Source: a virus (taxonomy: Duplodnaviria; Heunggongvirae; Uroviricota; Caudoviricetes). Taken from it: a DNA stretch of 23,498 nucleotides. The DNA lies in the IMG/VR virus record IMGVR_UViG_2537561944_000018; one strand, written 5' to 3'. The translations under genes were made by a program, and so were the position numbers. The notes under the pieces were generated by a model. The model saw nothing but the letters and a program-made list of their open reading frames with translations. It searched no databases and was not told where the DNA came from. Position 1 is the first letter of the stretch. Each line of letters starts with the position of its first letter. Below, one piece after another: positions 3,215 to 23,498 of this stretch.

Positions 3215-3291
3215 TGGCGCGTTGTAGTGGAGTCGAACCACTGACCGATTGCTTAGAAGGCAATTGCTCTGTCCGACTGAGCTAACAACGC
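3215..3291 (-). tRNA. tRNA-Arg (anticodon UCU), CCA encoded
   Basis: 77-nt cloverleaf: acceptor GCGTTGT/ACAACGC, D-arm GCTC..GAGC, anticodon stem ATTGC/GCAAT with loop CTTCTAA, T-arm AGTGG-TTCGACT-CCACT. Confidence 0.9.
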
Positions 3292-3304
3292 ATGATGCTG
3301 ATAA

Positions 3305-3381
3305 TGGACCGCCATCGGGGACTTGAACCCCGCGCAGCCAGCTTCGAAGGCTGGCGCTCTGTCCCGATGAGCTAATGGCGG
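3305..3381 (-). tRNA. tRNA-Arg (anticodon UCG), CCA encoded
   Basis: 77-nt cloverleaf: anticodon stem CCAGC/GCTGG with loop CTTCGAA, T-loop TTCAAGT; acceptor pairs CCGCCAT with ATGGCGG (C1-G72). Confidence 0.8.
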
Positions 3382-3390
3382 TATGTGATA

Positions 3391-3466
3391 TGGTGGCCCT
3401 TGCTGGATTTGAACCAGCGACCTGGCGATTATGAGTCGCTCGCTCTCACCACTGAGCTAAAGGGCC
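3391..3466 (-). tRNA. tRNA-Ile2-like (anticodon CAU; Met not excluded), CCA encoded
   Basis: 76-nt cloverleaf GGCCCTT...AAGGGCC with anticodon loop CTCATAA; closely resembles E. coli ileX as recalled; first of a three-tRNA cluster as in Stx-type phages. Confidence 0.85.
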
Positions 3467-15974: not shown

Positions 15975-16100
15975 GTTTCCCTCCGAACTTTACGATGACA
16001 CCGATAATTACAAATTTAAATTTAAATTTCAACTTCTATTTGTAATGCCACTTATCAATTTTTTCTGTAGGATCGCGGAACTAGTTTACGAGGGGTGGTG
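15975..16100. promoter_or_regulatory. Divergent promoter/operator region between the Cro-like and repressor genes
   Basis: Contains AATTACAAATTTAA (16006-16019) and its inverted partner ATTTGTAA (16038-16045) flanking a TTTAAATTTAAATTT repeat; candidate -35/-10 elements on both strands. Confidence 0.5.
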
Positions 16101-16493
16101 ATGATCTTTGTAAAACGCCTTCAGCAGGTGTTGCAGGAATTGAATATAAACCAGTCAGAGCTGGGAAGACGTCTTGGTGTAAAACCCCAATCCGTGCAAG
16201 GTTGGTTGAAAGGCGTGATGCCAAGAATGGATAAACTGGAAAAATTAGCAGAGCTCTCACAACATCCCGTCCATTGGTTCTTTATGGAAGAAGAAACTCT
16301 CGGCGATAAAATGGCTGTATCCAGTAATGACAACCAACCGCAACTTACAGAACAACAACGAAAAATCATATCGCTTTTAGATGAGTTACCTCAAAGCGAC
16401 GCAGAGCAGATCATTCGTGATATGGAGCAAAAACGCGATTTCTATAAACGGAAACTTGAAGAGTTACTGCGGCAGAAAAACAAAACTGCCTGA
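16101..16493 (+). CDS. DicA-like prophage repressor (HTH-XRE), 130 aa
   Basis: ATG at 16101 with AGGGG 5 nt upstream; N-terminal HTH LNINQSELGRRLGVKPQSVQGWLKG and a DicA-like C-terminus (...LPQSDAEQ...YKRKLEELL) as recalled. Confidence 0.8.
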   Translation: MIFVKRLQQVLQELNINQSELGRRLGVKPQSVQGWLKGVMPRMDKLEKLAELSQHPVHWFFMEEETLGDKMAVSSNDNQPQLTEQQRKIISLLDELPQSDAEQIIRDMEQKRDFYKRKLEELLRQKNKTA

Positions 16494-16539: not shown

Positions 16540-16898
16540 TTATAATCCAACCAGGCTTTCCAGGGGGATACCAAATTGATTATGAAGACGGCGAATCATT
16601 GGTAACGTAAGGCTTCTGGTACCATTCAACACCTCATAAACCCGATTTTTTTTCCCAATTGCGGGTTCCAAATCTTTCACAGTCAGCCCCTGCTGTTCCA
16701 TGCGAAATCTTATAGCTTCAATTGGGGATGGTGGCTCAATGGGATAATGTTTTTTTCATATTCCTCTATTAGCAAACACATCACCTCAAAAAAATCCCCC
16801 TCAGGCGTGTCAATTTCGGGCTCATTGTCGAACATGGGTTCAACAGCACGCAACGCGGCTTCATAATCTTGCTCTGTACGAATAGGTTTGATGTTCAT
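16540..16898 (-). pseudogene. higA: HigA-like antitoxin, frameshifted at an A7 tract
   Basis: The N-terminal 62-codon ORF (16898-16710) stops shortly after an A7 run (plus T7 16750-16756); the -1 frame continues through an HTH-XRE domain to TAA 16542-16540. One extra A would give a 120-aa protein. Confidence 0.65.
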
Positions 16899-16900
16899 GC

Positions 16901-17203
16901 TTACTCCAGTTCGATGGTATCAGCATCAATAGCATCGTATTCCTTGTGGTTTCCGATGAATTTAACAAATACCCATCCTCGCTGATACGCAATTGCAACA
17001 ATTAAACGGTAATGATTACCTTTTATGTTGAATACCACGCGCCGGTTTTTCAATATACTGGCCGTTCGGTATTGTGCCTTAATGTCTGCTGGGCTTTTCC
17101 AGTCAGCTTTTGCCGCCTCATCCACCCATGCCCTTAGCGGTTGTTCTGCATCAGGATTCTCCGCCCAAAAATCCCTGAGTGTTTTAACTGAGATAATCTT
17201 CAT
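16901..17203 (-). CDS. higB: HigB-family toxin (RelE/ParE superfamily), 100 aa
   Basis: ATG at 17203; ...VVFNIKGNHYRLIVAIAYQRGWVFVKFIGNHKEYD matches the E. coli HigB motif VFNVGGNELRVV...THKEYD as recalled; toxin-first order, stop 2 nt before the higA ATG. Confidence 0.75.
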   Translation of the reverse strand: MKIISVKTLRDFWAENPDAEQPLRAWVDEAAKADWKSPADIKAQYRTASILKNRRVVFNIKGNHYRLIVAIAYQRGWVFVKFIGNHKEYDAIDADTIELE

Positions 17204-17246
17204 AACTGTATAGTAGTCCCATTTTGGGACTGATGCAACAGCCCGC

Positions 17247-17300
17247 AATTACAAATTTAATAATAAACATGTTGACCAGTTAAATTTTAATTTGTAAATT
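17247..17300. promoter_or_regulatory. Second operator-like site with candidate rightward promoter (PdicB-like) upstream of higB
   Basis: Exact 14-mer AATTACAAATTTAA (17247-17260) plus inverted ATTTGTAA (17290-17297); plus-strand TTGACC (17272-17277), 17-bp spacer, TAAATT (17295-17300). Confidence 0.45.
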
Positions 17301-17616
17301 GTATCCATAAACCCACCCCGCCCCACAGAACGCAGGGCAATACTTCGAGTTACCCGGCAGTGGTCAGGGGTTAAGTAGCCAGCCTGAGGCGTATGAACAT
17401 GACGGCGGGGATTACGTTTAACTATGCAGCAGGTTTTTTGTTCCGCTACCCCGGCGTTAAGGGGAAACAGAGGATTTCTCAGTGGGCGAAGTCAAACATC
17501 AGAATGGAAGGCATCCAGGGATCAGCAAAGAAACAGCGATGGCGCTTTATATTGATATCAGCGCCATTGCCGGACAGGTAAGAATTATCAGAGCGGTAAC
17601 TAAGCGGTATGCGCCT

Positions 17617-17817
17617 TTACTTCAGAAAGTCTCTGGTGAGTGCACCGAAGATATTGTCAACGATTTCGTCATCAAACTGCGAGGACTCATCTTCAGTTAC
17701 AAGGTGACCACAATTTTTGCAGATGGCTCCCGCGAAACTGTCAGAGCCATGCGGTTTAAAGGATGTGTCAAAGACTTCGCCACCACATACTGGGCAAGAA
17801 AACTTGATTGTATTCAT
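17617..17817 (-). CDS. Small zinc-ribbon protein (CxxC-N20-CxxC), 66 aa
   Basis: ATG at 17817 with GAGAGGAA 7 nt upstream; CPVCGG...CKNCGH. It lies antisense to a 118-codon plus-strand ORF (17482-17838), so the call is uncertain. Confidence 0.45.
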   Translation of the reverse strand: MNTIKFSCPVCGGEVFDTSFKPHGSDSFAGAICKNCGHLVTEDESSQFDDEIVDNIFGALTRDFLK

Positions 17818-17909
17818 AACCAATTTCCTCTCGAGTAACAGACCCCTCAGAGGATACCACCTCGCCTGACGTGGTTAAAAGCAGGCAGCGCTAACCACAA
17901 GGAGCCGAC

Positions 17910-18128
17910 ATGCAGAAACGAGAACCCGTCATCATCGCGCCAGACTATACCGATGATGAACTTTATGAGTGGATGCACCAGAAAATTAAGGCAGCGCAGG
18001 ACCTGAAATGGGCCAATGAAGCCAGGGCTAAGCAGGCTGAAAATCTGTCCGCTCTGGAGCAGGATATCACCAATCTGGAAAAAGCAGCGGCATTAAGCAT
18101 TGCCAGAATGATTACATACCCGCGTTAA
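17910..18128 (+). CDS. YdfC-like small protein, 72 aa (assigned by position and length only)
   Basis: ATG at 17910 with AAGGAG 5 nt upstream; sits immediately upstream of dicF as ydfC does in Qin. Confidence 0.65.
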   Translation: MQKREPVIIAPDYTDDELYEWMHQKIKAAQDLKWANEARAKQAENLSALEQDITNLEKAAALSIARMITYPR

Positions 18129-18468: not shown

Positions 18469-18526
18469 TTTCTGGTGACGTTTGGCGGTATCAGTTTTAC
18501 TCCGTGGCTGCTCTGCCGCCCTTTTT
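18469..18526 (+). ncRNA. dicF: DicF small regulatory RNA with its U-tail terminator
   Basis: TTTCTGGTGACGTTTGGCGGTATCAGTTTTACTCCGTGGCTGCTCTGCCGCCC followed by T5; matches the DicF sequence as recalled, with one apparent A-to-G difference; lies just upstream of the dicB homologue. Confidence 0.8.
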
Positions 18527-18695: not shown

Positions 18696-18884
18696 ATGGA
18701 AACGTTATTACCAAACGTTAATACGTCTGAAGGTTGTTTTGATATTGGTGTTCTGCTCAGTAACCGGGAGTTTACTGAAGATGCCATTAATATGAGGAAA
18801 TATGAGCCTTATCTGCTCAATGATAATTCCATACTTTCCCGAATTGCTCTTCTTGAACTTGGTATTTTCGGAGAACGTCAATGA
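18696..18884 (+). CDS. dicB: DicB-like cell-division inhibitor, 62 aa
   Basis: ATG at 18696 with GAGGA 7 nt upstream; METLLPNVNTSEGCFDIGV... matches the DicB N-terminus as recalled; same 62-aa length. Confidence 0.8.
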   Translation: METLLPNVNTSEGCFDIGVLLSNREFTEDAINMRKYEPYLLNDNSILSRIALLELGIFGERQ

Positions 18885-22316: not shown

Positions 22317-23207
22317 TCAGGCTGCCAGATCATTATTTCCGATGGAAGCATAATAAGCTTTTTCTGCTTCTGCCGGAGGAATATGGCCCAGCCTTTCCAG
22401 CAATCGTCGATTGTTATACCAGTCCACCCACGTTAGTGTGGCCAGTTCCACTTCTGTCCGGTTTTTCCAGCTATTACGGTGTATTACCTCCGCTTTGTAA
22501 AGACCATTGATGCTCTCAGCCATCGCGTTGTCATACGAGTCGCCAGTACTCCCTGTTGATGCCAGTAATCCGGCTTCCTTAAGCCGCTGCGTGTAGGCCA
22601 GCGATACATACTGAGAACCTTTATCACTGTGATGGATTGTGCCGGACGGCCGACGGGCCCACAACGCCTGCTCCAGTGCATCCAGCACGAATGTTGTTTC
22701 CATGGATGATGAGACCTGCCATCCCACGATGTATCCGGCGAACACATCAATGATAAACGCCACATAAACGAAGCCCTGCCATGTGCTGACCCAAGTAAAA
22801 TCAGCCACCCACAACTGGTCTGGACGTTCTGCCACGAACTGACGGTTTACGCGGTCGCATGCGGCAACGGCTTTCCGGCTGACGGTAGTGCGGACCTTTT
22901 TACCCCGGAGAACACCGGCAAGCCCCATAACTGCCATGAGACGTGCCACAGTGCATCTGGCCACTCTGATACCTTCCCGTAACAACTGACGCCAGACTTT
23001 ACGCACACCGTATACCTGGTGATTTTCATCGTATACGCGCTGTATCTCTTTCTTCAGCCAGTCATCGTGCTGCGCACGGGCACTGCGTTTATCCGGATGA
23101 TGTCGCTGTTGCTGACAATGGTAATACGTTGACGGGGCAATATGCAGTTCGCTGCATACCGGTCCGACCCCGTACTGCTCACGCAGCTTATCCAGCAGTG
23201 GCATCAT
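22317..23207 (-). CDS. IS629-like transposase OrfB (DDE), about 296 aa from MMPLL
   Basis: DDE/rve motifs (...HHSDKGSQY...YDNAMAES...); the frame stays open upstream to 23297, overlapping orfA for frameshift fusion. Confidence 0.75.
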
Positions 23208-23498
23208 TTTTCCAGAGGCGGTCGAACTCCGCCTTCGCAAAATAAGCGGAAGCCTGGCGAAGGATATCGTTACTGCGGCGCAGTTCACGATTTTCACGTT
23301 CCAGCTCTTTCAGACGCTGACGTTCAGCACTGGTGAGCCCACCATCACCGCCCCCGGTATCCCGCTCATGCTGGCGAACCCAGACACGCAGAGTCTCCGG
23401 CGTACAGCCAATCTTTGGGGCAATGGAACAAATTGCCGCCCACTGTGAGTCATATTCATCCTGACTTTCCAGAACCATACGAATCGCCCGCTGACGGA
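23188..23498 (-). CDS. IS629-like transposase OrfA, 5'-partial (start lies beyond the window)
   Basis: ...[39 protein letters not shown]...[26 protein letters not shown]; HTH and leucine-zipper region of IS3-family OrfA. Confidence 0.75.

Follow-up and report, generated by a model that had tools for sequence, protein, structure and literature searches.

The window analysed here is the whole 23,498-nucleotide stretch of the virus record IMGVR_UViG_2537561944_000018, a lambdoid prophage of Escherichia coli of the enterohaemorrhagic (EHEC) type, whose segment 17250-17900 shows 99.8% identity with E. coli O26:H11 11368 and many O26 and O103 genomes. This segment contains two open reading frames (ORFs) on opposite strands: a plus ORF, which heads the early-left operon leading to ydfC, dicF and dicB, and a minus ORF encoding a predicted zinc-ribbon protein of the ECs_2282 family, which is nested entirely within the plus ORF (Table 1). 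An earlier annotation made from the letters of the window, the sequence-only reading, had reported two mutually antisense ORFs with good Shine-Dalgarno sites, and their coordinates, starts and AGAGGA sites were all reproduced from the sequence and the ORF listing, in which the minus frame extends to a TTG at 17823. That reading held that only one of them was likely to be real; the comparison of related loci described below indicates instead that the pair is likely a compact two-strand cassette of Enterobacteriaceae lambdoid (pro)phages, in which selection keeps both nested antisense frames. The minus ORF shows Cys8 and Cys11 in a CPVC motif (residues 8-11), Cys33 and Cys36 in a CKNC motif (residues 33-36) and an acidic C-terminal helix. 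Codon position 2 is shared by both ORFs, and position 1 of one lies opposite position 3 of the other. In this register plus-frame stops arise only from sense TTA, CTA or TCA codons, and the plus frame stays open by chance most easily among the antisense registers; furthermore, antisense ORFs of 60-170 amino acids are present on many long genes of the window. Because the register is so permissive, a bare ORF overlap proves nothing and comparative data are required.

Table 1. Features of the two-strand locus and its neighbours (positions in the window; TSS, transcription start site).
Feature	Position	Strand	Remarks
cro/YdaS-like gene		minus	first in the local gene order, before the cI/DicA-like gene
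cI/DicA-like helix-turn-helix gene	16095-16493	plus	
higB-higA pair		minus	between the cI/DicA-like gene and the promoter-like site 17272-17300
Candidate sigma-70 promoter, early-left/dicBF-type operon	17272-17300	plus	TTGACC-17-TAAATT, 9/12 in scan; expected TSS about 17307
Conserved 5' leader	17307-17481	plus	about 175 nt; ends in the plus-ORF translation-initiation region
Plus-ORF Shine-Dalgarno site	17469-17474	plus	AGAGGA, 7 nt before GTG 17482
Plus ORF	GTG 17482 to stop TAA 17836-17838	plus	118 codons + stop; first cistron, early-left operon
Plus-ORF conserved core	starts ATG 17539	plus	99 aa
Plus-ORF non-overlapped conserved part	17539-17616	plus	residues 20-45, MALYIDISAIAGQVRIIRAVTKRYAP; clean test region for plus-frame coding
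Zinc-transcript 3' hairpin, predicted	17541-17565	minus	arms 17560-17565 and 17541-17546; T-rich tail 17540-17525; about 50 nt past the stop
Minus ORF, zinc-ribbon, ECs_2282 family	ATG 17817 to stop TAA 17619-17617	minus	66 codons + stop
Minus-ORF Shine-Dalgarno site	17826-17831	minus	AGAGGA, 8 nt before ATG 17817
Conserved upstream block, predicted zinc promoter	17851-17886	minus	extended -10 TGgTATCCT 17851-17859; predicted TSS about 17844
ydfC	17910-18128	plus	next cistron; matches phrog_1744
DicF small RNA	18470-18521	plus	Rfam RF00039, 75 bits; downstream, same operon
dicB	about 18696-18884		downstream of DicF; then DUF1482 gene, exonuclease gene

Related loci were grouped in lineages: the E. 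coli-type; Klebsiella and Citrobacter amalonaticus together with the metagenomic locus L092; C. freundii; L123-L131; Enterobacter and others (P0041, P0048); P0052; P0033 with P0051; and P0034. The full-length lineages comprise the window and ten lineages with recovered DNA, eleven in total. Both ORFs are intact in 11 of the 11, down to about 35-45% amino-acid identity, and in every lineage the plus ORF spans the zinc ORF and ends within 0-7 codons of the zinc ATG. The exceptions are recent decay alleles: E44*, one frameshift that breaks both ORFs, and the nonsense allele E14* (GAA to TAA; window 17776-17778), which gives Phe to Leu in the plus frame (for example L223 1557-1856 and L226 2003-2302). 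The module was found in 937 of 5426 complete E. coli genomes, among them major EHEC lineages. Profile scans of the genome contigs with either protein alignment yielded no relatives, and scans of the viral contigs with the deep plus homologs P0033 and P0034 yielded none; the DNA of these homologs was recovered via their encoding contigs.

Wherever the context of a locus is readable, the plus ORF runs in the direction of the early operon around it. Its place in the phages of E. coli, C. freundii and Enterobacter and in metagenomic phages is early-left; there it follows the cI-type repressor as the first ORF, whether or not a toxin-antitoxin or other insert is present. In the prophages of Klebsiella and C. 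amalonaticus, and likewise in the related metagenomic locus L092, it comes immediately after cro, in the early-right position. The conserved module common to the phages (about 17525-17892) coincides with the predicted zinc transcription unit and is spanned by the plus-ORF core, while the N-terminal extensions and start positions of the plus ORF vary among lineages. In the C. freundii prophages L086 and L087 (2995-3519, minus strand of the locus), the plus ORF continues in frame from an upstream 77-amino-acid segment that matches a separate phage family (phrog_23433, E 5e-18), and the resulting 174-amino-acid ORF still spans the entire zinc gene.

The sequence-only reading had taken the minus ORF for a zinc-ribbon gene, and this assignment was upheld. 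The minus ORF matches the NCBIfam family NF047912 with 57 bits (cutoff 37, E 1.3e-15), residues 4-59 lying on profile positions 1-56 of 60, and with its four Cys and 66 amino acids it is a member of this family, which is named only as a putative zinc-binding protein and whose annotation is silent on the antisense nesting, the promoter block and the 3' hairpin. In the 99.8%-identical locus of O26:H11 11368, the RefSeq coding sequence (CDS) is the minus ORF, WP_024182289.1 (NP_310309.2 in Sakai). Parsimony on 62 unique E. coli-type sequences distributed the changes in the overlap 82:16:22 over zinc codon positions 3:2:1, which are plus positions 1:2:3, and a subset of 39 sequences shows the ratio 21:4:4 over the same positions. 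This excess of change at plus codon position 1 excludes a gene on the plus strand only. Branch-wise counts gave a zinc-frame omega of 0.20 (p 3e-13) in the E. coli-type set and of 0.29 (p 7e-8) in the Klebsiella/Citrobacter-type set. Furthermore, the zinc ATG, its Shine-Dalgarno site, the four Cys in two CxxC pairs and the 66-codon length are kept in 11 of 11 full-length lineages, to roughly half amino-acid identity; the most divergent zinc proteins include that of L216, which begins MVTINFVCQKCSCKEFD. One variant, P0003, is without C33, and the four Cys are conserved in the intact full-length members. On this comparative evidence, the minus ORF is almost certainly a real gene.

The zinc protein shows the motif layout F.CP.C...D....G..C..C...V.EDES, and its N-terminal ribbon matches the N-terminus of phrog_4852 (E 2.7e-9). 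The layout is like that of the TFIIE-alpha ribbon (PDB 1vd4) and the Lar family, and weak matches to many zinc-ribbon models were found. Membership of the Lar restriction-alleviation family was rejected, with 17.8 bits against a threshold of 39.6 for TIGR03655 and 13 bits against 28.6 for PF14354. Among the PDB sequence profiles the zinc protein shows a weak match to the TFIIE-alpha ribbon (E 0.14) and the plus protein none; among the PADLOC defence models the zinc protein shows only a weak match (PDC-M14A, E 6e-4, 18 bits) and the plus proteins none; and Foldseek against the PDB found no match with E <0.3. The PDB and zinc-ribbon model matches favour the zinc-ribbon fold class for the zinc protein, with predicted metal binding, and do not favour TFIIE-alpha or Lar membership.

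A distant zinc-ribbon homolog (41% identity) was found in L133 (2986-3261), where it adjoins a large, possibly transposase-like ORF in a non-phage context. L133 also shows a 91-amino-acid antisense ORF that spans the zinc homolog with the same geometry, which may reflect chance or deep conservation. Aligning this ORF with the plus family beyond the overlap requires a gap of 7 codons, and the context is non-phage, so L133 was not counted as support.

Searches with both translations led to NF047912 for the minus ORF and to phrog_21318 for the plus ORF, whose residues 20-118, which start at ATG 17539, match all the positions (1-99 of 99) of this family with E 8.6e-67. The plus family is small, with 12 matches among 1.84 billion representatives, and no Pfam, NCBIfam or PADLOC family was found for the plus protein. 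Four comparative tests, independent of each other, show that the plus frame is also selected, in disagreement with the proposal that only one ORF is real. In 18 unique Klebsiella/Citrobacter-type sequences, the 25-26 plus codons outside the overlap show an omega of 0.27 (p 1.2e-5), with 25 synonymous and 21 non-synonymous changes, while the other five frames of the same stretch (17539-17616) show omega values of 0.5-1.6. Both this omega and the plus-frame codon periodicity also hold for the stretch that separates the zinc stop from the hairpin. When ungapped alignments are anchored at the stop codon of the zinc ORF and all six frames are scored with BLOSUM, the plus frame ranks first for 35 of 45 lineage pairs, mostly with a large lead, and five of the ten failing pairs involve L216, which has a one-codon insertion.

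The other two tests concern the overlap. Among 57 unique sequences, none of the 45 distinct (column, codon) states of zinc-frame Leu and Ser codons is TTA, CTA or TCA, the complements of stop codons in the plus frame; in 330 long ORFs of the same loci, used as control, the three account for 18% of Leu and 21% of Ser codons. The probability of this avoidance is about 5e-5 if the states are independent. Taken lineage by lineage, the avoidance of A-ending codons is suggestive at most (p 0.02-0.7), and the pooled codon-state test was used instead. In addition, 117 substitutions were inferred that leave the zinc protein unchanged; compared with all possible changes of this kind, they alter the plus frame more conservatively: the BLOSUM mean is 1.25 against 0.56 for transitions (P 2e-4) and 0.88 against -0.51 for transversions (P 0.004). 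Restricting the analysis to the E. coli-type set preserves the bias (P 0.003), and ydfC, taken as control, does not show it. Furthermore, members at about 35% identity keep the pattern TL.[VIL][DN].S[AVI][LVIM]..Q... in the non-overlapped part. A shadow ORF should show neither stop avoidance nor frame-specific constraint, and the plus ORF shows both. Altogether, in the family as a whole the plus ORF is quite probably a selected coding frame too. Purifying selection on it appears clear in the non-overlapped part and is less strongly indicated in the overlap; for the E. coli lineage to which the window belongs, the constraint looks weak. In the AlphaFold model of the plus protein, residues 27-115 (pLDDT about 65-74) form a helix-helix-helix-strand-strand-helix arrangement and residues 1-26 are disordered.

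The zinc gene has the appearance of a full transcription unit, nested antisense inside the plus ORF. About 70 nt upstream of it are conserved in ten lineages, including E. coli-, Citrobacter- and deeper-type loci; in these ten the predicted extended -10, TGnTATC(C/T)T, is invariant and the motif GA(G/A)(A/G)GGAA at the position of the zinc Shine-Dalgarno site is conserved. A -35-like TTTTAA (17875-17880) is located at an 18-nt spacing, and a palindrome, GCCTG-N13-CAGGC (17864-17886), covers the -35 and spacer of the block. In L216 both arms of the palindrome are altered in a compensatory way (GCCGGG/CCCGGC). The GCCTG...CAGGC repeat is interleaved with a second one, ACCAC...GTGGT (17856-17875); both lie between the plus stop and ydfC and are conserved across genera, and they could be an operator of the zinc promoter or a structure in either transcript.

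The 3' hairpin of the predicted zinc transcript lies within the opening codons of the plus-ORF core. Read in the minus sense, 84% of its cells pair and five of its nine pairs change on both sides, with a covariation score of 0.296 against 0.159 for shuffled alignments (0/500). One pair is G.U in six of ten lineages, which fits a minus-sense RNA only. The hairpin is probably a terminator or another 3'-end element.

The sequence-only reading had also placed the plus ORF in the path of a transcript from a candidate promoter at 17272-17300 toward dicF and dicB. This placement is supported. The promoter was recovered by the consensus scan, and a mapped start is known for its counterpart in a related genome: Table S5 of PMC10469882 gives for the equivalent promoter of E. 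coli O157:H7 EDL933, TTGACC-17-CTAAAT, a Cappable-seq TSS in eight of eight growth conditions, at NZ_CP008957.1 1848930 (minus), the equivalent of window position about 17307. On this mapped TSS, the plus ORF lies on a real transcript in EDL933 and, since the eight conditions were uninduced, the early-left dicF/dicB operon is not fully silent in the EDL933 lysogen.

In the alignment, phages of different immunity types differ in sequence up to about 17307, just after which the conserved leader begins. The leader is conserved among E. coli-type phages with differing promoters, immunity regions and toxin-antitoxin inserts. The leaders of K-12 Qin and EDL933 are shorter and have only the last 28 nt in common with that of the window; this stretch (17440-17467) is 96% identical to the one just before ydfA in Qin. 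The folding of the leader is not better than that of shuffled sequences (z +0.84), and a search of 17200-18000 against Rfam found no family with the E limit relaxed to 1. The leader might act as a nut- or put-like site or as some other regulatory element.

No RefSeq genome has both strands annotated, and the choice between them differs among genomes. The plus ORF is called as a gene in many assemblies and in phage Evi, and the 99-amino-acid RefSeq CDS WP_001240336.1, which corresponds to the plus core, is annotated in the O157:H7 strains EDL933 and 1130 as well as in strain 2014C-3655, where the zinc ORF has E14*. RefSeq annotates it only where the zinc ORF is broken: E14* disrupts the zinc ORF, the plus ORF is annotated instead, and therefore the annotated strand flips between genomes. 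This exposes an annotation artefact, in which pipelines switch strands from genome to genome. Table S12 of the preprint 10.1101/2020.11.18.388249 gives the remnant of the EDL933 zinc ORF (1848616-1848723, +) as an embedded antisense ORF matching ECs_2282; the entry is a BLAST match without discussion and does not report expression. The main texts of the literature covered do not mention ECs2282, and this row of a preprint supplement is its sole trace there. Each half of the pair is already in a database, under a differing annotation scheme.

The pair is probably a rare nested antisense gene pair, unusually well supported, of a known class. Short non-coding antisense RNAs inside lambdoid early operons are exemplified by lambda OOP against cII and P22 sar against ant. 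The cassette resembles them in the short convergent transcript predicted within an early operon, facing the 3' portion of an early gene, and in Klebsiella and C. amalonaticus it is located right after cro, which is the position of cII; unlike OOP and sar, the predicted antisense transcript encodes a conserved protein, and regulation by pairing is suggested by the arrangement. Among coding cases, the embedded antisense genes of E. coli O157:H7, pop/ompA (PMC7103648), ano/ECs2385 (PMC5960689) and laoB (PMC5810103), are likewise on opposite strands with one ORF embedded. Such cases are documented chiefly by expression and by phenotypes of overexpression, the embedded ORF being young as a rule (PMC7103648, PMC5960689, PMC5810103, 10.1101/2020.11.18.388249). 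Unlike pop, ano and laoB, the pair described here is known from sequence alone and its support is comparative, with both frames apparently selected across genera; moreover, the embedded zinc ORF is the more constrained partner and seems to bring its own transcription unit, and the pair moves as a phage module.

The slot of the cassette in the window is that of ydfA-ydfB in the dicBF operon of K-12 Qin (PMC5069750), between a DicA-type immunity region with its leader and ydfC-dicF-dicB. Apart from the last 28 nt of the leader, homology between Qin and the window resumes exactly at the ydfC ATG. However, ydfA and ydfB show no sequence similarity to the cassette and are two small same-strand genes without an antisense gene.

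Several results weigh against the reading that selection keeps both frames and that the zinc gene has its own transcription unit. The AlphaFold models are of mediocre confidence, with pLDDT of 56.2 for the zinc protein and 60.5 for the plus protein. E14* is fixed in a widespread O157:H7/O111/O145 prophage lineage, which implies that the zinc gene is dispensable in this large lineage. In the E. coli-type set, the plus-frame omega is 1.13 in the overlap and 0.71 (not significant) outside it, and a within-lineage missing-stop test of the non-overlapped part had no power (0 stops observed, about 1.8 expected). P values computed under independence are optimistic, given that the lineages are related. 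The -35 of the predicted zinc promoter is weak, and consensus promoter and terminator scans called neither this promoter nor the hairpin, so their functions as promoter and terminator are predictions; in addition, the portion of the EDL933 TSS supplement covered shows no antisense TSS at the predicted position of the zinc promoter. Lastly, the mutually exclusive expression of the two strands, discussed below, is something that we infer.

These points have to be weighed with three other explanations of the locus. In the view which RefSeq takes for this strain, and which is one of the two options left by the sequence-only reading, only the zinc ORF is a gene and the plus ORF is a shadow ORF, lying on the early transcript without a selected product. 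We regard this as unlikely. It would account for the E. coli-type plus-frame omega values, for the missing Pfam and NCBIfam matches and for the modest AlphaFold confidence, and the register, with stops only at TTA, CTA and TCA, has a chance of 4-27% per lineage of staying open; moreover, the zinc unit covers the same extent as the conserved part of the plus ORF, so that some of the conservation of the latter could reflect the 3' untranslated region and the hairpin. A shadow ORF is at odds with the low omega and the periodicity of the plus frame, which persist in the spacer from zinc stop to hairpin, with the six-frame comparison, the stop-complement avoidance, the conservative bias that ydfC does not show, the protein-like pattern surviving at about 35% identity and the constant orientation relative to the operon. 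A second explanation, somewhat less probable still, is that the plus ORF is open only to let ribosomes cover the early transcript, as a protection of ydfC-dicF-dicB from Rho-dependent polarity or antisense silencing, and that its peptide is functionless. Stops are indeed avoided while the E. coli-type omega in the overlap is about 1, the conserved translation-initiation region is common to ydfA of Qin, and the N-terminal extensions and starts differ between lineages. Ribosome cover as such, however, would leave unexplained the amino-acid constraint outside the overlap, the conservative bias within it, the survival of the sequence pattern through deep divergence and the end of the plus ORF, always within 0-7 codons of the zinc ATG.

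The reverse possibility, that only the plus ORF is a gene and that the zinc ORF with its CxxC pairs is a chance antisense ORF, is highly improbable. Gene callers of the Prodigal type choose the plus ORF, as do several phage and GenBank annotations, and in the many O157:H7-type genomes with the broken zinc ORF it is the strand that RefSeq annotates. But the overlap changes, 82 at plus position 1 against 16 and 22, are impossible for a gene on the plus strand only, and the zinc frame shows the low omega of 0.2-0.29, the HMM (hidden Markov model) score above cutoff, the Cys, ATG, Shine-Dalgarno site and length invariant in eleven lineages, and a conserved promoter block and 3' hairpin of its own. 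The two-strand cassette with both frames under selection is thus the reading that we favour.

If the cassette works in this way, both proteins would be made, at different times. Under repression of the prophage, the zinc gene would be expressed from a promoter of its own, perhaps subject to control by way of the palindrome that covers the -35. Once the early promoter becomes active, the plus ORF would be transcribed and translated across the zinc unit in the opposing direction, and transcriptional interference together with sense-antisense pairing could give mutually exclusive expression states. A bolder proposal, which we consider doubtful, is that the cassette is a mobile, self-contained sense/antisense switch: repression would go with production of the zinc protein from its own operator-controlled promoter and early firing with that of the plus protein, the two transcripts would silence each other, and the two proteins would act oppositely on one decision (lysogeny maintenance, exclusion, or release of the toxic functions dicF/dicB/kil). 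If true, this would be a deeply conserved case of one DNA segment encoding two antagonistic proteins on opposite strands.

Antisense overlapping genes in bacteria and phages are contested, and most candidates rely on expression noise or overexpression phenotypes and have no evolutionary support. The evidence here is the reverse, with frame-specific selection detected across (pro)phages of Escherichia, Klebsiella, Citrobacter and Enterobacter. The cassette heads the operon of the cell-division inhibitors DicF and DicB. Furthermore, the two frames are genetically separable: E14* breaks the zinc frame only, and a change of a Ser codon to TCA, synonymous in the zinc frame, would break the plus frame.

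Upstream of the cassette, higA (16540-16898, minus) is frameshifted by a 1-nt deletion near 16756, in relation to the 119-amino-acid higA of O26:H11 11368, and is split into ORFs of 62 and 53 amino acids; the HigB toxin gene (16901-17203) is intact. This may be a true mutation or a sequencing error. Other matches at the Rfam gathering threshold in the window are the small RNA STnc100 (2273-2445, minus), a cluster of three tRNAs (3218-3466, minus) and the ALIL pseudoknot, a frameshift element of the IS3 family (23133-23248, minus).

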